This document shows, in pieces, positions 8,735 through 43,051 of a stretch of DNA of 47,606 nucleotides. The DNA is taken from the IMG/VR virus record IMGVR_UViG_3300042262_000189, positions 1-47,606 of that record; one strand, written 5' to 3'. The position numbers and the translations under genes were made by a program. The notes below the pieces were generated by a model. That model worked only from the letters and a program-made list of their open reading frames with translations. It made no database searches and was not told where the DNA came from. The number at the start of each line of letters is the position of its first letter. The stretch's first letter is position 1. Source of the stretch: a virus. Lineage: Duplodnaviria; Caudoviricetes.

Positions 8735-9106
8735 TTACTTGGCCGCCCGTAGCTTTCCATCCGGATCGCCAGCCAGGTTAAACAGGTTGCCTTGGTCTTC
8801 CTGCAGGACCGTGAGTTTGCCACCGCGGTTAACCCACATTGGTGTTTCGGTGGTGTCCTCTTCGGACGCTTTGCCGCGTGGGGTAGGGGTGCTGTAATTG
8901 AGGCGGTGCTTAATCTTGACGCGCTTCTCTTCAACAGAGTTACCCATACGCTCAAAATCAAAGGTGAGGACCACCTTTCCTTTGTTGCCGTTGTTCAGAA
9001 CGCCGAGCGCGGTGGTATTGAGCGCCGCCGCAATCTTATTCATGAACACGCCGGCATCGAGCTCGCCCAGGAAATCGGGCACGACTGTCATGCGATCATT
9101 ACTCAT
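8735..9106 (-). CDS. YfdP-like phage protein
   Basis: FLGELDAGVF..PTPRGK..EEDTTETPMWV; upstream of yfdQ-like gene. Confidence 0.8.
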   Translation of the reverse strand: MSNDRMTVVPDFLGELDAGVFMNKIAAALNTTALGVLNNGNKGKVVLTFDFERMGNSVEEKRVKIKHRLNYSTPTPRGKASEEDTTETPMWVNRGGKLTVLQEDQGNLFNLAGDPDGKLRAAK

Positions 9107-9154
9107 GGTTTTTACCCTCATGAAAGGCGGCTGCAACCGCCGGAATTTTCTCCA

Positions 9155-9772
9155 TACACAACACAGAAGAGCATCTGCGGTTAGCAGCCGCCCGGGTGGA
9201 TTGGGTTATGAGCCCGTCGCCCGGTGATGCTCTTTTGTCTTGTGTAAAAAGGGCGGTGCCAGAAACAAAGGGGAACTGACACCGCCAAACTACACACAGC
9301 ACAGTAAAAAAGGTTGTGGCGGTGGTGCCTCCACCTGCCGGTATTAGCCAATCTCGGCGACGTACACTGCCCGGAAACGTACTCAGTGAACGGGTTGGCT
9401 CGTCACGTGCGCATAGCCGCAATTACCACAACGGTAAGAGCACTGCCGCCACCCCTTGCGGGATAACCCGTCTGTCTGCCTGGCGGTAGGGCGTTTCCTG
9501 GCATCTTCAGTGCTCTTTCCTGTTGTGTCCCCGTCTCTTCCAGGGTGTCACACCGTATCGCCACGATGGTGGATCGCTGTCGTGCATACCGACACTGACT
9601 TGCACATTCCGGTTGTACTGAGAGCGCATGGATCAAGGGACTCTCAGGCCGCTGACGCTGCATGTGCCATACAACGGTTGCAAATATTGCCGTTCACAAC
9701 TGGAAGCGCACTCCTTCAGTAACAAACCAGTCCCCACGACCGATGGAAGATGGAATGCGCTTTCATGTTGTG
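9155..9772 (-). repeat. Three related long inverted-repeat stems, probable RNase III sites, in the pL leader
   Basis: Arms 9155-9175/9226-9246, 9427-9445/9508-9527 and 9695-9714/9752-9772 share CACAAC..AAGnGCA. Confidence 0.75.
9246..9300 (-). ncRNA. DicF-like small RNA
   Basis: Minus strand GTTTGGCGGTGTCAGTT...ACCGCCCTTTTT resembles E. coli Qin DicF (GTTTGGCGGTATCAGTT...GCCGCCC, recalled) in the same operon context. Confidence 0.7.
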
Positions 9773-9897
9773 TATCTGCTTTTACCCACATCAGGTGAGG
9801 TGGATCCTGGTTATTCCCCGACAACAAGGATTCGGGTAATCTGGATGACTCTGGTCTAATTGGTTGAAATAAAGTGGAACTACTTTCTTTAAGGAAT

Positions 9898-10435: not shown

Positions 10436-10517
10436 CATATCTGCGAATCATCCCGGTCTTCGTATGCCCCGGTCGGCTACTTCGTGGGCGTCCTGCCTGT
10501 TCGCTGTTGATGAATAA

Positions 10518-10570
10518 AATCTAACTTAACTTAGTATTTGGGTCAAGAGAAAACACCAAACATTTCTTAG
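10518..10570 (-). promoter_or_regulatory. pL promoter and OL operators
   Basis: TTGACC-17-TAGATT on minus strand; CTAA-N6-TTAG at 10521-10534 and degenerate copy at 10557-10570. Confidence 0.8.
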
Positions 10571-10597
10571 TTTGGTGTTGGGTGGGGTTAATTATGA

Positions 10598-11224
10598 TTA
10601 GAGTTCGTACTGAACGCCTTTCACTACACCTATGATGATGCAGTTGCCATTAATGGCGATATTGGGGTAGCGAGGATTTAGCGGGACGAGGAATTTTTGT
10701 GAACCATCAATAACCAGTTTTTTTACTGTTGCTTCATTTGTGCCATCGATACGGGCAACAACAATTTTACCATGCTGGGGTTCGATGTCCGGGTCAACAA
10801 TCACTGTCGCGCCCTCAGGTATGGTTGGTAAGCCATTGGGGTTAGTCATTGAGTCGCCCTTAACTTCGAGCGCGAAGGAGTTATCACCTATCCGCAATGA
10901 GGTTTCGACCCATTTATCTGCATCATGAAGTACATCTTCAGCTTTAGATTCTGTAAATAAACCAGCCTGTACCCATGAAATTACAGGTACCCTTCGCATT
11001 TTAGTAATCAGGTTACCTTCAAATTCTGTACCGTAGAGAATGTAATCTATTGATGTATTGAAAAATTTAGCAAGTTTAGATAACGACTCGCCGCCTGGAA
11101 CGTTGACATCTTTTTCCCAATACCCCACCGCAACATCACTAACGCCACAAAATTTACCGAGTTCCTTTTGTGAGGTTTTGGTGATCCGCCTTAGCGATTT
11201 TATTCGTTGTCCGACAGTTTCCAT
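10598..11224 (-). CDS. cI: CI repressor (HTH + S24 autopeptidase)
   Basis: N-terminal HTH, VQAG cleavage site, GDSM and TVKKL catalytic motifs. Confidence 0.95.
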   Translation of the reverse strand: METVGQRIKSLRRITKTSQKELGKFCGVSDVAVGYWEKDVNVPGGESLSKLAKFFNTSIDYILYGTEFEGNLITKMRRVPVISWVQAGLFTESKAEDVLHDADKWVETSLRIGDNSFALEVKGDSMTNPNGLPTIPEGATVIVDPDIEPQHGKIVVARIDGTNEATVKKLVIDGSQKFLVPLNPRYPNIAINGNCIIIGVVKGVQYEL

Positions 11225-21771: not shown

Positions 21772-22821
21772 ATGGAAAATACTGTAAAAATATCCAGTAT
21801 TGAGTTAATCAATGCTGATTGCCTGGAATACCTCCCAACGCTACCCGATAACTCCATTGATCTTATCGTTACTGACCCACCTTACTTCAAGGTGAAGCCA
21901 AACGGCTGGGATAACCAATGGAAAGGGGACGAGGACTATTTACGCTGGCTTGATAGCTGTCTGGTGCATTTCTGGCGTGTTTTGAAACCATCCGGCAGCA
22001 TGTACCTTTTTTGCGGGCACCGCCTGGCAGCGGATATCGAGCTTTTAGTGCGTATGCGGTTTAACGTGCTTAACCATATCATCTGGGCCAAGCCATCAGG
22101 TCGCTGGAACGGTTGCAACAAGGAGAGCCTGCGCGCGTATTTCCCCGCGACGGAACGTATCATTTTTGCCGATCATTATCAGGGGCCATACAGGCCAAAG
22201 GATGATGGATACGCCGCGAAATGTAACGAGCTAAAACAGCATGTCATGGCACCATTAATGTCTTATTTCCGGGACGCCCGGGAATCTCTCGGGGTGACAT
22301 CAGCGCAAATTGCGGAAGCCACAGGTAAGAAAAACATGGTTTCCCACTGGTTTGGCGTTAGTCAGTGGCAGCTGCCGAACGAAGCTGATTATTTGAAGCT
22401 GCAAGCGCTATTTCAAAAAATTGCCATGGATAAGCACTCCCGCCAGGAATTGGACAAACCTCACCACCAGCTCGTTGCGACCTGGCAATCGCTGAACAGA
22501 AAATATTCGGAACTTCAGCAGGAATATTACCGGTTACGGCGCCCGTTTAGCGTGTCTGTCACGGTGCCTTATACCGACGTCTGGACTCATAAGCCGGTTC
22601 AGTTTTATCCCGGCAAACATCCCTGTGAGAAACCTGCCGATATGTTGCAGCAGATCATTAATGCCAGCAGCCGGCCAGGCGATGTGGTGGCTGATTTCTT
22701 TTTCGGATCCGGGTCAACGCTAAAGCAAGCTGCCTTGCTTGGACGGAAGGGCATAGGTGTTGAGCTGGAAAAGGAACGGTTTGAACAGACGGTAATTGAA
22801 ATGCGTAATTTGCTGGTTTAG
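21772..22821 (+). CDS. Beta-class N6/N4 DNA methyltransferase
   Basis: DPPY precedes HPCEKP and DFFFGSGS. Confidence 0.92.
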   Translation: MENTVKISSIELINADCLEYLPTLPDNSIDLIVTDPPYFKVKPNGWDNQWKGDEDYLRWLDSCLVHFWRVLKPSGSMYLFCGHRLAADIELLVRMRFNVLNHIIWAKPSGRWNGCNKESLRAYFPATERIIFADHYQGPYRPKDDGYAAKCNELKQHVMAPLMSYFRDARESLGVTSAQIAEATGKKNMVSHWFGVSQWQLPNEADYLKLQALFQKIAMDKHSRQELDKPHHQLVATWQSLNRKYSELQQEYYRLRRPFSVSVTVPYTDVWTHKPVQFYPGKHPCEKPADMLQQIINASSRPGDVVADFFFGSGSTLKQAALLGRKGIGVELEKERFEQTVIEMRNLLV

Positions 22822-22887
22822 CTCAGCAGGTAGAGCGCCTGCCTTGTAAGCAGGATGTCGGCGGTTCGATTCCGTCAACCAGCTCCA
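22812..22887 (+). tRNA. tRNA-Thr (UGU)
   Basis: 76-nt cloverleaf: GCTGGTT/AACCAGC acceptor, CCTGC-CTTGTAA-GCAGG anticodon arm, GTTCGATTC, encoded CCA. Confidence 0.93.
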
Positions 22888-25018: not shown

Positions 25019-25123
25019 CGCCCGGCGTATAAAACCTGCAGAGCTTTTCGGGGTGAGCCTTTGGAATGGTCGTGGGACTGTTCTGCAGGGCGGCCACTCT
25101 GGGCGAAGGCTCACCTCAAAAGG
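25019..25123 (+). promoter_or_regulatory. Bistable structured 5' leader RNA, copy 1
   Basis: Four helices in two mutually exclusive sets; one set masks the SD. Confidence 0.65.
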
Positions 25124-25131
25124 ATAGTCAC

Positions 25132-25977
25132 ATGAAAAAGTTAATCATGGCCGCAATCGCGGTCGCTTCGCTATGCCTGAGTAACGTTGTGGCAGCTGCG
25201 GATGTCGTCATCACCACCGGCCAGCAGGGCTTAACCTACAACACGGTATATGGCGTAAATCTGGCCGGTGCCCTAACCGAATATGGCTACAGCTCGACGG
25301 TGATCCCCAGCAAAGGCTCGCTGGACAACCTCGATAAGGTCGCCAGTGGTACTGCTCAGATTGGTTTTACCCAGGCCGACGCTTACCAGTTCTGGCGCAG
25401 CCGCCACGGCAACGAAGCTCAGAAAGTGGACATTATCGGTGAACTCGCTGATGAATGCGTTTTCGTAGCTGCCAAGAAGGGCGGGAAGGTCAGCGATGAG
25501 GGAGATTTAAAAGCCGGGGTGAAAATTGCAGTCGGCGAGCCCACCAGCGGATCGTATGCGTCCTGGCAATACCTGCAAAGCCTGGAAAAAAACTACGCGA
25601 AGGTCGAAACCTACGCGAAAGGCGGCGTGCGCTCGCTGGCGAAAGTCACTACCGGCGAATATGACGCTTTCCTCTGGGTATCCGCGCCGGACAGGTCGAA
25701 TAAATTTCTGGAAGCGGTTAACCAGGAGAGCAGCGGCCTGACCATGATCGACATGAACGGCTGGCATGTTGACGATAAGCTGCCGAACGGTAAGCCGGTC
25801 TACGAGCTCAAAAAAGCGGTAACTCAATCCGGCTGGCTGAGTGATTCAAAGGTCAAGGTACCATGTACCAAAACACTGGTGGTCGCTAATACCGATGCCG
25901 GTGATGAATTGCTGGAAACAGCGTCGACCGTTCTGTTGAAAAACCTCAGCCGTGTGCTGGGTACAGATGGTAAGTGA
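25132..25977 (+). CDS. TAXI-family-like periplasmic solute-binding protein
   Basis: Signal peptide; SKGSLDNL..AQIGFTQAD; GEPTSGS. Confidence 0.8.
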   Translation: MKKLIMAAIAVASLCLSNVVAAADVVITTGQQGLTYNTVYGVNLAGALTEYGYSSTVIPSKGSLDNLDKVASGTAQIGFTQADAYQFWRSRHGNEAQKVDIIGELADECVFVAAKKGGKVSDEGDLKAGVKIAVGEPTSGSYASWQYLQSLEKNYAKVETYAKGGVRSLAKVTTGEYDAFLWVSAPDRSNKFLEAVNQESSGLTMIDMNGWHVDDKLPNGKPVYELKKAVTQSGWLSDSKVKVPCTKTLVVANTDAGDELLETASTVLLKNLSRVLGTDGK

Positions 25978-26132: not shown

Positions 26133-26212
26133 CACTGTGCAAAAGGCATCTTCGGGTGCCTTTGACAGAGTGCTTGCTATTGACGATGAGAATGATGTCG
26201 TCATAAATTATT

Positions 26213-26366
26213 GGTGTGGTGAATCCCCCTATGCGGAGGGGCGGAAACAGCTTAAATGGAATCCTTATGATTCACTCGGACCGCAAGTCATGGTTGCTGA
26301 CCAAAGGCTTACTGAGAGGCACTCAGCACCACACCCCAATTTCAGCCCACGTTATCGCGTGGGCTT
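26213..26366 (+). ncRNA. Candidate structured ncRNA
   Basis: Closing stem GGTGTGGTG/CACCACACC, internal hairpins, upstream TTGACG-18-TAAATT, downstream hairpin. Confidence 0.5.
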
Positions 26367-26370
26367 AACA

Positions 26371-26763
26371 TTATTGGCGTATTGCGAGTCTGATCGCTAT
26401 TGCTTCCAGGTCGGAGAGGAATGTTTCCTCATAAACTGCATTGTTCATTGCGTCTATCGCAGCCTTACGATCTTGCTCATCAGAGTATTCGTAGCGGTCT
26501 GCAATTTGAGTAATCATCTCAATAGAGATGTCGTCACCACGCAACTTGTCGCTATTGATGATGTCGATGGCCGCTTTGATTTTCCCCATTTCAAGCTCCA
26601 TCGCCTCGAGTAAGCGATTTGATAGGTTTTCCGGTTGGGACTTCCCAGACACGAAATTCCTCACGGTACGGTCAGAAATACCGAGGGCGCGTGAAAGTGC
26701 AGACTGCCACTTATCCCCATATACCGCTTCCCCAACAGCGCGTAATTTTTCCAGATTGTTCAT
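26371..26763 (-). CDS. HTH transcriptional regulator
   Basis: WQSALSRALGISDRTVRNF HTH; AGGTGAG RBS. Confidence 0.85.
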   Translation of the reverse strand: MNNLEKLRAVGEAVYGDKWQSALSRALGISDRTVRNFVSGKSQPENLSNRLLEAMELEMGKIKAAIDIINSDKLRGDDISIEMITQIADRYEYSDEQDRKAAIDAMNNAVYEETFLSDLEAIAIRLAIRQ

Positions 26764-29319: not shown

Positions 29320-29565
29320 ATGACAGAGCTCACCACCGCAGAACAGCTACGGCTGAATCTTCTTTCCACCCTGAATTACGATACAGCCGCCGCAAAAGAG
29401 GCGATTTTATTCGTTCAGGACAGCCCGCTGAAATATCAGCTTTTCATCCAGCAGTACAGCCGTGTGACAACTGAATCCGAAGTTGTTGCAAAGACTATCA
29501 AAGCGGTTCAAGAGGCGACGGAAGCGCTGGCGCTGTTTGATACCGCTTCCGAGCAGTCCAGCTAA
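29320..29565 (+). CDS. DUF2560-like phage protein
   Basis: EQLRLNLLSTLNYDTAAAKEAI; GAGGT RBS. Confidence 0.7.
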   Translation: MTELTTAEQLRLNLLSTLNYDTAAAKEAILFVQDSPLKYQLFIQQYSRVTTESEVVAKTIKAVQEATEALALFDTASEQSS

Positions 29566-29642
29566 GGCATTACAACAGGCATTCACTGAGTGCCTGTGAT
29601 ATTGCTTTTAGGTACAATCACCTCAAACAAAGTGGGGTGCTC

Positions 29643-30191
29643 ATGAGTCCTGATTATATTTCTTACGAAACACTAATTGCTGCGCGCGAAGCCGCTTACT
29701 GGGCAAAGCTTTCAATGCTTGGCACGTGGTTTTCAGGAATAGCAACTTTTTTAGCTGTTATCACTTCACTATACATAGCCTTAAGGGACAGGATGCCCTT
29801 CATCCGGGGGCGAGTAATATACGGGCGCATTATAACTGAGGATATCGATAAACCAATAATAGGCGTAACTGTTATCAATCGGTCTTTTCACGCGATAAGA
29901 ATAAAATCTGTATGTTGGGATGTCGGGGGAGAACATGAACTGCAACAACTTTTTAGAAACCCAGATTCAGACCCTCTCCCAGTTCGATTAGAGCATGGTG
30001 AAGAAGCTAATTTCCGAATCATCCTTGATGACGATGATGATAATGATTGGCTTAAAAGAATGGCCTTGCGGTTAACAAAGTTAAACTCGCATCCAAATAA
30101 ACTCCGCTGTGTGATCGTACTTTCAACCGGAGAGAGACGCCGATTAAAGGTAGCTAAACGGATAAAAGAAAAAATCCAACAATTTATGTAA
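29643..30191 (+). CDS. Membrane-anchored moron protein of unknown function
   Basis: N-terminal TM (GTWFSGIATFLAVITSLYIA), lower GC, flanked by hairpins. Confidence 0.75.
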   Translation: MSPDYISYETLIAAREAAYWAKLSMLGTWFSGIATFLAVITSLYIALRDRMPFIRGRVIYGRIITEDIDKPIIGVTVINRSFHAIRIKSVCWDVGGEHELQQLFRNPDSDPLPVRLEHGEEANFRIILDDDDDNDWLKRMALRLTKLNSHPNKLRCVIVLSTGERRRLKVAKRIKEKIQQFM

Positions 30192-30202
30192 TTTAGATTA
30201 TT

Positions 30203-30227
30203 AAGGGTCGCTCAGGCGGCCTTTTTT
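30203..30227 (+). terminator. Intrinsic terminator
   Basis: AAGGGTCGC-tcag-GCGGCCTT + T run. Confidence 0.82.
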
Positions 30228-30240
30228 ATTGTGCCTCACA

Positions 30241-30333
30241 CGCGCCCCTCAAAGAGAGTCTTTCAGTAGTGAGCCTAGGTAATCCGTTATCTCTCGGCGG
30301 CTTTACCGTGCGACAGGCTAACGTCTAAAAGGA
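30241..30333 (+). promoter_or_regulatory. Bistable structured 5' leader RNA, copy 2
   Basis: Same helix order as 25019-25123 with different sequence. Confidence 0.6.
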
Positions 30334-30339
30334 AAATCT

Positions 30340-30657
30340 ATGAAATACCAGATTGCGAAACTTTATCGCGGTGATGATTTCCGAGGATACGCCATTGCTG
30401 TTGATGGTCAGTTACTTGATAGGCAGGTATCAACCATTATCAGCACTGAGCCCGGTAGCATCCCAACGGCCACCGTCGTATTTAACCTGGATTGTGATCA
30501 TGCAGAAAACCAAATCATTATTAATTTGGATCGAGATGCCCTAATTCAGGTAAATGGCAGCCCCACAGATTCAGCTGTCGAGGCTATCAAAAAAGCTGCG
30601 GCTGAAGGTGCTAAGCGTGGATATCGTAGTGCGGTTAATAAGCTGCTTAAAGAGTAG
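30340..30657 (+). CDS. 105-aa protein with a tape-measure C-terminus-like segment
   Basis: aa 71-100 match TMP aa 792-821 at 19/30 positions. Confidence 0.8.
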   Translation: MKYQIAKLYRGDDFRGYAIAVDGQLLDRQVSTIISTEPGSIPTATVVFNLDCDHAENQIIINLDRDALIQVNGSPTDSAVEAIKKAAAEGAKRGYRSAVNKLLKE

Positions 30658-30726: not shown

Positions 30727-31068
30727 ATGAATAAAGAACCACGCATTTACGGAAGCAAATGGGACCGTGAGCGTCTTATATTCCTTCGTGCACATCCCTT
30801 ATGCGTCATGTGCCACGAGCAGGGCAGGGTGACAGCGGCTACGGTGGTTGACCACATCATCCCGCACAAACTGAAAGAGGCTCTGCGATCTGGTGACAAT
30901 CAGGCAATAGCGAAGGCGCAAAAGCTTTTCTGGAGCCGGAAGAACTGGCAAGGGCTGTGTAAGCAGCACCATGACTCCACGAAGCAGCGGATGGAGAAGA
31001 GCGGCACCGTCATAGGATGTGATGAGAGCGGCATACCGCTCGACCCAAACTCGCATTGGTTTAAATGA
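30727..31068 (+). CDS. Terminase-associated HNH endonuclease
   Basis: PLCVMC..VVDHIIPH..NWQGLCKQHH upstream of terS. Confidence 0.92.
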   Translation: MNKEPRIYGSKWDRERLIFLRAHPLCVMCHEQGRVTAATVVDHIIPHKLKEALRSGDNQAIAKAQKLFWSRKNWQGLCKQHHDSTKQRMEKSGTVIGCDESGIPLDPNSHWFK

Positions 31069-37343: not shown

Positions 37344-37541
37344 ATGAACGAGCAACAGGTAAACGCGCTGATAGCAGCGCTGACCGAACAGACCGCGGCA
37401 CAAAGAGAACAGACGGAAGCGATAAACCGTCTGGCTGATTCAAACATGGCATTATCTGACGTCATTATCCAGTCGCTTGCCGGCGATCTGGATGAACCAC
37501 CAGAGAAGCAAACTTATCTGAGCGGTAAATCAAGGGGGTAA
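37344..37541 (+). CDS. Small helical hypothetical protein
   Basis: MNEQQVNALIAAL...TYLSG. Confidence 0.6.
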   Translation: MNEQQVNALIAALTEQTAAQREQTEAINRLADSNMALSDVIIQSLAGDLDEPPEKQTYLSGKSRG

Positions 37542-40087: not shown

Positions 40088-40465
40088 ATGAATAAAACTG
40101 TACTCGGTTTGTGTATTTCCTTAATGTGCTTTACAAGTTTAGCTAGCGCAAAAATAACTTATTTATCTTGTCCTAAATTAGATGAAAGAGCACCAGATCT
40201 TATTGTTGTACTTGATCAAAGTAATGGGTCAGCTTCTCTCCAGTCACCATCTATGGGGAGTGGTTTGAATTTTACTGCTCCTGCAGCGTTTGGCCCATCT
40301 GAGGTGACATGGCGTAAGGATTCGGCAAAACTGAAGCAAACTTACTCTGTTGATAGAGCAACGCTTGTTTTGAAGAGAACAACTTATAGTGCGATGACTA
40401 ATAGTACCCACTCTGATGTTGCAGACTGTAAAATAAGTAAGCCACCAACAAAGAATAAGTTCTGA
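40088..40465 (+). CDS. Secreted moron protein between chaperone and tape measure genes
   Basis: Signal peptide, two mature Cys, AT-rich, own terminator at 40473-40497. Confidence 0.78.
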   Translation: MNKTVLGLCISLMCFTSLASAKITYLSCPKLDERAPDLIVVLDQSNGSASLQSPSMGSGLNFTAPAAFGPSEVTWRKDSAKLKQTYSVDRATLVLKRTTYSAMTNSTHSDVADCKISKPPTKNKF

Positions 40466-40513: not shown

Positions 40514-43051
40514 ATGGCTGGAAAGTCCCTTGGTACATTAACAATTGACCTGATTGCGAAGGTCGGCGGATTTGTCCAGGGAATGGATAAAGCCGAAAGG
40601 GCATCCCAAAAATGGCGCGACCAGGTAAAAAAAGACGCTCAGGAAATCAGTGCTTCCATTATTGCCGTTGGCGCCGCAGCGGCAACGGCTGCCGTTGGAA
40701 TTGGTGCAGCCGGACTGGCGATAGTAAAAAATACAGCACAGCAGGTGACTGAGGCCGATCGTTGGGCTAAATCTTTAAAAATGTCCACTCAGGATTTGTT
40801 ATCCTGGCAATACGCAGCTGAGCAAGCAGGTTTAACCGGCGATAACATAGCTGATATTTTCAAAGACATTAATGATAAAGTTGGCGATGCGGTCCTGAAC
40901 AAATCAGGTGAGGCTGCACAGGCGCTAGATACTCTCGGGCTTTCAGCTCAGAAGCTGGCCCAGCAATCCCCTGATAAGCAGTTGTTGGCTATTAGCTCGG
41001 CATTACAAAAAATACCTTCTCAGGCAGGCAAAACTAACATTCTCGAAAGCCTGGGGAATGATCTGTCAAAAATGCTGCCGTTGTTCGACAACAATAACGA
41101 AAAGCTAAAGCAGTTCCTTCAGTTATCAAAGGATTTTGGCATAGCCCCACCGCAGGAAGATATTGATAACCTGGTTAAAGTTAATCAGTTTTTCCAGGAT
41201 ATTGAGACAAGCGCTCGCGGCTTAAAAATGGAAATTGCTTCTGGCCTGGCAAAGGTAGATTTATCCCCTCTGCAGGACGGACTTGATAGTATCCATGATG
41301 TGTTCACTGACCCTGCTATCCTGCAGGGCCTGTCCGATCTGGTAGGGGAGGCGATCAGTTTAGCTGGTGTAGTTGGTCGCATTGCTGGTGGACTTGGCGC
41401 CATCGCTTCCTATACACGCTCGCGGATCGGTGCGGTATCAGGAAATTATGATTCAGCTGACGAAAATGATGTAGCGCAACGAATTGAATTCCTCAATAAA
41501 AGAGGCAATCAAAGCAAAGAGCAAAAAGATGAATTAGATTTTTTAAATAAACGTCTTCAGTATCTGCGAGCCATCAAATCAAGCTTAACCCCAGAGGACG
41601 TGGAGAGAGGAGCTAATGGGTTAACCTCGCTCCTATCTGACATGGGAATAGATCAGCAAAAAGGTAACGATTATAATCTGGGGAAAGGGCAGTCCAATCA
41701 GAAGATAACACCAAAGAGCAATTCATCTGATAACGCGTTTAAAAACCGACTTTTGGACCTGCAAAAACAAGCCGCTCTAATTGAAACGACGGGTAAAAAA
41801 ACAGCTGAAGTTACAGCGCTGGAGAAAGTAAATTTTGATATAACCAGCGGCAATCTGAAAAAAATATCTGAAGGGCAGAAGGAACAACTGCGTATTGCCG
41901 CCAAGTTCCTCGACTCCAAAAAGGAAGAGTTACGCCTTAATCAGGAAAGTGCAAAAGTAGCTGAGTTTGTTGCCGGACTTGATAGACAGAATAAACTAAT
42001 AAAACAAGGGTATGACAACGATCTAATGGGCCGCTCTTTGGGTTCAAAGGATCGCGGTAGAATGCATGAAACAAATAGTATTCAGCAGGATTTTGAATCA
42101 AGGAAAGAGGATTTATTAAAACAATATCAGTCTGGTGATATTACCAAATCACTATATGATTCTGAAACTGATGCGTTAAAGTCTGCCCTTGAAGAACGCT
42201 TGCAAATACAACAGGATTATTATAAGGCGTCGGATGATTTAAGTAATGATTGGGAGTCTGGTATATCAAGTGCATTAGCTGACTTCGCTGATAATTCCAG
42301 TGATTATTATCAGCAAGCAGCTGATGCGATGACATCAATATTGGGCTCTGCTACAGATTCAATTTCAGACCATTTGTATGATGTCATCAGTGGTACAGAA
42401 TCGATGGGAGAAGCTATAAAGGGAATTTTTTCCGATCTTGGGACGTCAGTCATTAAAGCTTTAGTTGATATGGCTGCTCAATGGATTGTTTATCAAGGTG
42501 TTCAGATGCTGGTGAACAAAACAGCCCAGGCTTCTGCTATCCCTGCGATGATCGCCAACGCACAAGCAACATCACTTCAAGCTCAAATCGCAGCATATGC
42601 ATCAACTGCGGCTATACCAATTGTTGGGCCAGCGCTGGCCCCGGCAGCTATGGCGGCAGCGGCGGCTATAACAACCCCTTTAGTCGCTGCTGTAGGTGCA
42701 TCAGCACTTGCTGGTATGGCCCACGATGGTATTGACTCTGTACCAGAAACCGGAACATGGCTCTTGCAGCAAGGCGAGCGCGTCACGACGGCTAAAACCA
42801 GTGCGAAACTTGACGCCACCCTGGACAGGGTTGCAACCCAGTCAACCGGCGGCGGTGCTATTTACGCTCCTAATATTTCTATCCCTATCAATGGTAACCC
42901 ATCGGATGCCACGGTCGCCCTGGTACGTAAAGCCGCTGCTGAGGGCGCCGAACGCGGCTATCGAAAAGCCGTCAACTCGGTGACTGCCGGCCAGGGTGAT
43001 CTGCACAGGGCACTAATGGTGAAAACTAACTCGGGGAGGAAAATTCGCTGA
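40514..43051 (+). CDS. Tail tape measure protein
   Basis: 845 aa, Ala-rich helical; LGTLTIDL start; AHDGIDSVPETGTWLLQQGERV. Confidence 0.93.
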   Translation: MAGKSLGTLTIDLIAKVGGFVQGMDKAERASQKWRDQVKKDAQEISASIIAVGAAAATAAVGIGAAGLAIVKNTAQQVTEADRWAKSLKMSTQDLLSWQYAAEQAGLTGDNIADIFKDINDKVGDAVLNKSGEAAQALDTLGLSAQKLAQQSPDKQLLAISSALQKIPSQAGKTNILESLGNDLSKMLPLFDNNNEKLKQFLQLSKDFGIAPPQEDIDNLVKVNQFFQDIETSARGLKMEIASGLAKVDLSPLQDGLDSIHDVFTDPAILQGLSDLVGEAISLAGVVGRIAGGLGAIASYTRSRIGAVSGNYDSADENDVAQRIEFLNKRGNQSKEQKDELDFLNKRLQYLRAIKSSLTPEDVERGANGLTSLLSDMGIDQQKGNDYNLGKGQSNQKITPKSNSSDNAFKNRLLDLQKQAALIETTGKKTAEVTALEKVNFDITSGNLKKISEGQKEQLRIAAKFLDSKKEELRLNQESAKVAEFVAGLDRQNKLIKQGYDNDLMGRSLGSKDRGRMHETNSIQQDFESRKEDLLKQYQSGDITKSLYDSETDALKSALEERLQIQQDYYKASDDLSNDWESGISSALADFADNSSDYYQQAADAMTSILGSATDSISDHLYDVISGTESMGEAIKGIFSDLGTSVIKALVDMAAQWIVYQGVQMLVNKTAQASAIPAMIANAQATSLQAQIAAYASTAAIPIVGPALAPAAMAAAAAITTPLVAAVGASALAGMAHDGIDSVPETGTWLLQQGERVTTAKTSAKLDATLDRVATQSTGGGAIYAPNISIPINGNPSDATVALVRKAAAEGAERGYRKAVNSVTAGQGDLHRALMVKTNSGRKIR

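Follow-up and report, generated by a model that had tools for sequence, protein, structure and literature searches.

Why should a small late gene of a siphophage encode a stretch of protein that resembles the end of the phage's own tape measure protein (TMP)? The question is raised by a 47,606-base virus record, hereafter the window, that covers a siphophage late region. Both the gene for the 105-aa protein and the TMP gene lie where the initial annotation had placed them (Table 1), and the similarity it reported, 19 of 30 identical residues between positions 71-100 of the small protein (from 30550) and TMP positions 792-821 (from 42887), was reproduced. The Smith-Waterman score of the two proteins is 112, compared with a mean of 35.7 and a maximum of 62 for shuffled sequences, none of which (0/2000) scored as well. 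BLASTP extends the match to residues 69-102 and TMP 790-823 (20/34 identical, E=1e-11), a tblastn search over the whole window aligns the segment with the TMP at E=2e-10, and profile-profile comparison of the segment with the TMP end gives a probability of 98.4%. The copy ends at TMP residue 823 of 845, which is 22 residues short of the C-terminus.

Judged from the sequences, this likeness is old and lies at the level of protein. Most shared codons differ, as had been proposed: 13 of the 19 identical residues are specified by different codons. DNA identity between gene and TMP segment is 54/90, or 22/30, 25/30, and 7/30 at codon positions 1, 2, and 3, and a blastn comparison of the window with itself found no DNA repeat at the segment and the TMP. 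Because so few third positions agree and the blastn repeat is absent, a recent DNA duplication was rejected as the source of the segment.

Table 1. Features of the window, and of related records where indicated, that bear on the 105-aa protein.
Feature	Position	Strand	Evidence or remark
DUF2560 gene	29320..29565	+	upstream at 23/29 long loci and at one short one; frequent but not obligatory
184-aa inserted gene, weak phrog_16957	29637..30191	+	recurs at one other long-form locus only
Terminator-like hairpin, upstream of leader	30203..30224	+	
Conserved hairpin leader, ends in ribosome-binding site	30251..30339	+	common to short forms
105-aa late accessory gene: PHROG 10235 core plus TMP-end-like segment	30340..30657	+	ORF, profile and homologue searches
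Core domain, residues 1-64, phrog_10235; four predicted beta-strands	30340..30531	+	HMM E=7e-29
TMP-like segment, residues 69-102: short strand, NG-x-P turn, predicted amphipathic helix (77-104)	30544..30645	+	
HNH endonuclease before small terminase	30727..31068	+	marks lysis-to-packaging accessory slot
phrog_2612 gene, 65 aa, without TMP helix, between head-tail adaptor and head closure	37344-37541		
Tape measure protein, 845 aa: phrog_2854, PF09718, TIGR01541	40514..43051	+	family matches
Matching TMP part, residues 790-823	42881..42982	+	BLASTP, Smith-Waterman
Final 22 TMP residues, without counterpart in 105-aa protein	42983..43048	+	
Tail-tip module: phrog_384 protein, DUF1833, phrog_329 minor tail protein, TipJ-related 1025 aa	43051..47467	+	
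phrog_2612 genes with TMP-end-like helix	L098 4813-5103; L143 1339-1620; L145 131-418		

The remainder of the small protein belongs to a recognizable family, a point that the initial annotation had missed. Its first 64 residues align to positions 4-67 of the 67-position profile of PHROG 10235, a family annotated as of unknown function. This core mostly stands alone, as proteins of 63-80 aa in many prophages, and in various homologues it is followed by many unrelated tails. The 105-aa protein is thus best described as a fusion of a stand-alone domain of about 65 residues with a copy of the TMP-end helix. When the core is folded by itself, AlphaFold2 predicts four strands (pLDDT 86), and its monomer model of the 105-aa protein contains one long helix at 77-104 at low confidence (pLDDT about 50-65). 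Foldseek searches with the full model (viral, PDB) and the core model (PDB) returned no match at E<=0.001, VIA with the full model found generic helices only (best Z 4.2), and a search of the ESM Atlas gave only hits below 0.9. No PADLOC, NCBIfam, or Pfam family matches the 105-aa protein, and the core profile matched none of the tail proteins in the collected loci. In one record (L018, about 10500-10800) the long form is immediately followed by another copy of the core gene (103 aa).

Homologues were found with and without the extension. A set of 45 comprises 37 long proteins (105-137 aa) and eight core-only proteins (67 aa); the named close homologues of the gene come from Klebsiella, Raoultella, and Hafnia, and the related IMG/VR records are mostly proviruses. 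Among 86 loci, 28 plus the window carry long forms, which fall into three subgroups (105-106, 104-109, and 97-98 aa), and the remainder have short forms or unrelated tails. Pooled pairwise dN/dS values for 21 distinct long genes, from pairs that are not independent, are 0.23-0.35 for residues 71-100, 0.16-0.23 for the helix at 81-97, and 0.17-0.22 for the core. Furthermore, positions whose consensus equals the TMP residue are better conserved than others (0.84 versus 0.69, p=0.035, among related sequences), and the best-kept positions of the segment, the TMP-identical ones, include glycines. The added segment is under purifying selection like the core, and this selection, together with the better-kept TMP-equal positions, argues that it is not degrading. 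Free degradation of the segment in homologues, which would have spoken against the initial annotation, was not found. The one frameshift within the extension of a long form is in a 5-kb metagenome contig (L034), and a search for remnants of the segment behind short forms found none at 57 short loci (best E 1.9). Codon positions, dN/dS, and conservation therefore agree with the earlier proposal that the match is maintained at the protein level.

Purifying selection does not prove mimicry. It is conceivable, if unlikely, that recombination brought in a TMP piece on one or two occasions and that this piece now serves only as a generic oligomerizing or stabilizing helix for the core's own function, its likeness to the TMP being a relic. 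The tolerance of the core for many unrelated tails fits this explanation, as does the loss of the NG-x-P turn in one long-form subgroup. A tree built from the core only (64 columns) requires two changes for the C-terminal extension, and a single origin, which would also fit, is not rejected (AU p=0.19).

A relic would also be consistent with how the segment relates to each phage's own TMP. The TMP end was searched for in the records of 50 of the 86 loci and was located for 21 of the 29 long forms; the other eight are six fragments without it, one with a scrambled end, and one that was unsearched. Sixteen of these 21 carriers have a TMP end of the window's type that hardly varies among them, whereas the mimic segment varies widely; in a permutation over these same-type pairs, mimic and own TMP scored no higher than permuted pairings did (p=0.30). 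In the other five carriers (G002, G006, G010, G011, and G019, all rated 100% complete), the phage's own TMP end differs while the mimic is intact: the mimic scores 17-32 against the carrier's own TMP and a mean of 92-105 against the window-type TMP. Hence the co-variation of mimic and cognate TMP that the initial annotation had proposed as a check is not seen. Recent module exchange could explain the five mismatched carriers. The TMP gene of G019 is split into three frames (L091 7999-11357).

Several observations are harder to reconcile with a relic, beginning with which positions of the segment are best kept: those identical to the TMP, glycines among them, despite the low agreement at third codon positions. 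A profile search against 1.84 billion representatives yielded 54 hits, and four proteins (P0079, P0081, P0103, and P0093) carry, N-terminal to the same PHROG 10235 core, a helix that is like a different type of TMP end, seen in L095-L097 and L105. The helix and that TMP end share 13-14 of 29 residues and no shuffle did as well (0/2000), for segments that were chosen by eye. A per-genome search with the same TMP end recovered the P0081 gene (E=1.3e-4) in two partial records, in which the phages' own TMPs were not found. In P0079, P0081, and P0103 the N-terminal helix is accompanied by a tail-fibre J piece (PF09327), and P0079 and P0081 link the phi80 gp66/x171.28 family to the PHROG 10235 core. 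By inspection, members of the phi80 gp66/x171.28 family mostly have TMP-like termini; in a pairwise test of the x171.28-family terminus, the sole scoring one was weak (Fraca, E=0.006). The x171.28/gp59-like late proteins are mosaics of J pieces and TMP-end-like termini (L146-L196, with P0081 at L146 10001-10882), and the phi80 gp66 gene is at L122 9353-10081.

The same region of the TMP also occurs on an unrelated gene. In three records, the connector-region gene phrog_2612 carries a helix like the window-type TMP end (Table 1). The helix in L143 is identical to its own TMP end at 12 of 26 residues, and the match in L098 to its own TMP is weak (1/2000 shuffles as good). Taken together, the PHROG 10235 proteins with helices at either end and the phrog_2612 genes indicate that TMP-end pieces occur on at least two unrelated scaffolds and at both ends of the core. 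A word-index search for further small proteins with the TMP segment returned three TMP fragments only. When 401 genomes of the family were scanned, 17 showed matches; most of these are in frames the size of a TMP, and one is a small-gene mimic (that of L143). The remaining matches in the scan are weak, and one that was inspected (L138) is another frame over an unrelated gene. On this sequence evidence, we regard as real that the 105-aa gene holds a selected copy of the TMP end on an accessory scaffold and is one case of a recurring pattern, which the initial annotation had also missed.

A role in tail assembly itself, as a modulator, has some appeal. The helix might bind the phage's own DUF1833-type tip, the distal ring, or the tail chaperone, holding the place for a time and so tuning tail initiation. 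A DUF1833 tail tip is present in 12 of 12 complete long-form records and in 2 of 12 complete short-form records, a contrast that is not independent evidence because long- and short-form records are related and that might reflect shared ancestry only. The window's tail-tip type is that of every complete long-form carrier tested, and the five carriers with a different TMP end also have DUF1833 tips. Moreover, both faces of the segment helix are conserved and its amphipathic register agrees with that of the TMP. However, short forms occur in DUF1833 phages as well (G007, G009, G031, G041, G043, and G044), so the extension would be dispensable for such tips. Furthermore, some 12 kb separate the gene, in its accessory slot, from the tail genes, and the TMP's terminal residues are missing from its product. 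We consider this modulator role rather improbable, though not far-fetched.

The gene is flanked by the lysis genes on one side and the HNH/terminase genes on the other, and it shares the orientation of the late operon in which it lies. No sigma-70-like promoter was found on the + strand between 26500 and 31300, which is consistent with expression by late-operon read-through. The initial annotation had also placed the gene behind a bistable leader RNA, a proposal that gained no support. The leader fold has z=-0.14, and the two best folds (-26.9 and -26.1 kcal/mol) differ only internally and bury the ribosome-binding site in both cases. Judged from the 20 bases upstream, the leader precedes 13 of the 29 long forms, is absent before the other 16, and is also found before many short forms. 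Covariation is slight, with two-sided changes in 2 of 19 consensus pairs, in one sequence each, and a comparison with Rfam gave no family at gathering score and weak E-value hits only. The leader hairpin recurs ahead of many small late genes and is not linked to the mimic.

No gene appears to travel with the long forms. Beside the 29 long loci there is no conserved opposite-strand or constant partner gene, and the neighbors vary. The 184-aa gene upstream is shared with only one other long-form locus and so is not a cognate partner. DUF2560 is strongly associated with the long forms (Table 1), and literature searches on it, largely outside subscription papers, turned up no TMP-mimic decoy. A gene of the Acb2/Tad1 family (Acb2/Tad1-hairpin) lies within 3.5 kb, in the same lysis-to-terminase slot, at 8 of the 29 long loci and at two short loci (e.g., L033 6755-7045). 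At 11 short-form loci the gene immediately upstream is an antisense GNAT acetyltransferase (L064 9274-9756, - strand).

Elsewhere in the window, a gene pair at 23184-24916 matches PADLOC PD-T4-10_A (E=1e-10) and, weakly, PD-T4-10_B (E=3e-5); its larger gene has DUF6575, and the pair is likely a defence moron behind a tRNA. That tRNA gene (22812-22884) immediately follows a DNA methylase, N6_N4_Mtase (21772-22821). A TAXI/NMT1-like solute-binding protein (25066-25977; TIGR02122 below cut-off) adjoins STnc100 (26184-26371), and a 125-aa gene with a signal-peptide-like start and no family match (40088-40465) lies between the tail chaperone and the TMP.

Among the readings offered initially was a dominant-negative blocker, whereby the protein would be built into the TMP trimers or the tips of related phages that co-infect or superinfect, so that tailless particles result. 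Prophages do carry tail-assembly blockers, as described in PMC10884400 and PMC11364771. The anatomy also stands, since a truncated copy without the docking end is what would be expected of a poison subunit, and five phages that keep the gene intact have TMPs that would themselves be immune. What weakens the idea is that 16 of 21 carriers make a matching TMP without any conserved antidote neighbor and that the extreme C-terminus is missing, the part to which the baseplate contacts belong by analogy with JBD30 (PMC11445458). Furthermore, Tab is constitutive from its own antisense promoter and Tai is constitutive, whereas the 105-aa gene is co-oriented with the late operon and no + strand promoter was found for it. 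A blocker function therefore seems quite improbable.

We tentatively favor a different explanation, in which the 105-aa protein is a late-expressed decoy for a Tab-like inhibitor, a sensor, or a protease that acts on the TMP-end helix. Of the readings in the initial annotation, a decoy for a defence that recognizes the TMP fits best, and we hold it as plausible but short of probable. The protein would be made with the late operon, the PHROG 10235 core would serve as a soluble display scaffold, and the displayed helix might titrate an attacker away from the few real TMP copies. Without the docking end, the copy would spare the phage's own tail from poisoning. Because no partner gene travels with the 105-aa gene, the attacker would come from the host or from another prophage. 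The near invariance of the TMP end among carriers suggests that mutational escape is hard. Being essential, low in copy number, and difficult to mutate, TMP ends would be good targets for defence. Selection on the added part equal to that on the core, the better conservation of its TMP-equal positions, and the repeated capture of TMP ends support a decoy, as does the Acb2/Tad1-family gene near more long than short loci.

Known defences of tail assembly offer further, analogical support. According to PMC10884400, Tab sensitivity maps to the TMP's C-terminal region, escape mutants did not arise, and anti-Tab is a late gene near the packaging module. The TMP is present in 3-6 copies (same source and PMC11364771). 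Like anti-Tab (gene 30) in the anti-Tab/Tab pair of Pseudomonas phage JBD26, the 105-aa gene is a small late gene near terminase genes, and the sensitivity region in the JBD26 system is the part copied in the 105-aa protein. However, the latter has no sequence likeness to gp30 or gp31, which we assigned by position and strand as described in that source: 821 of 1000 shuffles score as well against anti-Tab. The adjoining antisense cognate defence gene is absent beside the long forms, and tblastn with anti-Tab in 202 sequences gave no hit outside JBD26. Anti-Tab is also unlike its own TMP in sequence (183/300 shuffles as good), so mimicry is not established for known counter-defences.

A second precedent is AtiEcA (phi80 Orf64), a small counter-defence gene in the pre-packaging slot whose expression in the lytic cycle protects tail assembly; the target of Tai is the central tail fibre, and Ati is invariably next to tai (PMC11364771). 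The 105-aa gene is in the same lysis-to-packaging slot, but it has no homology to AtiEcA (299/1000 shuffles as good) and no tai lies near any long form. Indeed, among the 202 sequences, homologues of Tab, anti-Tab, Tai, and Ati were found neither in the window nor near long forms. Tai/Ati matches were limited to the short-form record L051, where a near-identical TaiEcA/AtiEcA pair (98% / 91%; 9018-9837) is immediately upstream of the core gene, and, for Tai only, to L149, L165, and L188, where Tai-like genes adjoin x171.28 genes. The late proteins like phi80 gp66, "Fur-regulated ORF x171.28," and N15 gp59 share the slot and have TMP-end-like termini, but theirs are of a different TMP-end type and come with a J piece. 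Phi80 orf66 was deleted singly, and in PMC11364771 only orf64 is reported to reduce titre. Thus, by analogy, the 105-aa protein might work like the late counter-defences of the anti-Tab/Ati kind, and it belongs to neither.

Comparison with TMP ends of known structure places the copied part more precisely. Like the C-terminal coiled coil of the siphophage TMPs of JBD30, T5, and 80alpha, the segment is helical and rich in small residues (PMC11445458). The resolved end of the JBD30 TMP (gp46) is its last 33 residues, with baseplate contacts at 1149-1152 of 1158 (same source). By position, the segment overlaps only the opening 11 residues of that final 33-residue stretch; unlike those TMP ends, it is on a free accessory protein and lacks the last 22 residues, which correspond to the JBD30 baseplate-contact zone. 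No PDB entry is related in sequence to the window's TMP end, which is also unlike the TMP end of JBD26, so the analogy to JBD30 is positional.

That hosts can sense the TMP directly, as reported for the STAND sensor Avs18 (bioRxiv 10.64898/2026.01.04.697583), would give a phage reason to make a decoy. However, Avs18, the one reported TMP sensor in these sources, recognizes a central segment of about 130 residues and not the end, and the window protein shares with the TMP only residues 790-823 and not this central helical segment. Other points also stand against a decoy. There is no candidate attacker, and homologues of the known systems are not near long forms. Five of 21 carriers keep an intact segment with a differing TMP end of their own, of which a self-protecting decoy would have no need. 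The restriction to DUF1833 tips would suit a tip-binding role just as well, and selection by eye preceded the shuffle test of the N-terminal helix segments, which come from phages whose own TMPs were not located. A TMP-end mimic or decoy was not found in a search of largely openly accessible literature, including passages of PMC13728456 and PMC12184496.

Perhaps the decoy reading extends beyond this gene. It is plausible, and we hold it about as tentatively as the decoy itself, that temperate enterobacterial phages build modular "tail-fragment decoys," small late proteins in which interchangeable PHROG 10235, PHROG 2612, and x171.28/gp59 scaffolds display TMP-end or J-piece epitopes. Such captured immutable epitopes would soak up tail-targeting defences. 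If instead the protein modulates tip assembly, it would represent an accessory factor for assembly whose gene lies outside the tail operon. If the decoy explanation is true, a self-mimic would be a new counter to tail-assembly defences, unlike the cognate antidotes of Tab and Tai, and each decoy would be bait for an undescribed defence that reads the TMP-end helix. The 34-residue segment might accordingly be used as bait for the host or prophage factor, and a widespread family of hypothetical late genes would be assigned a role.
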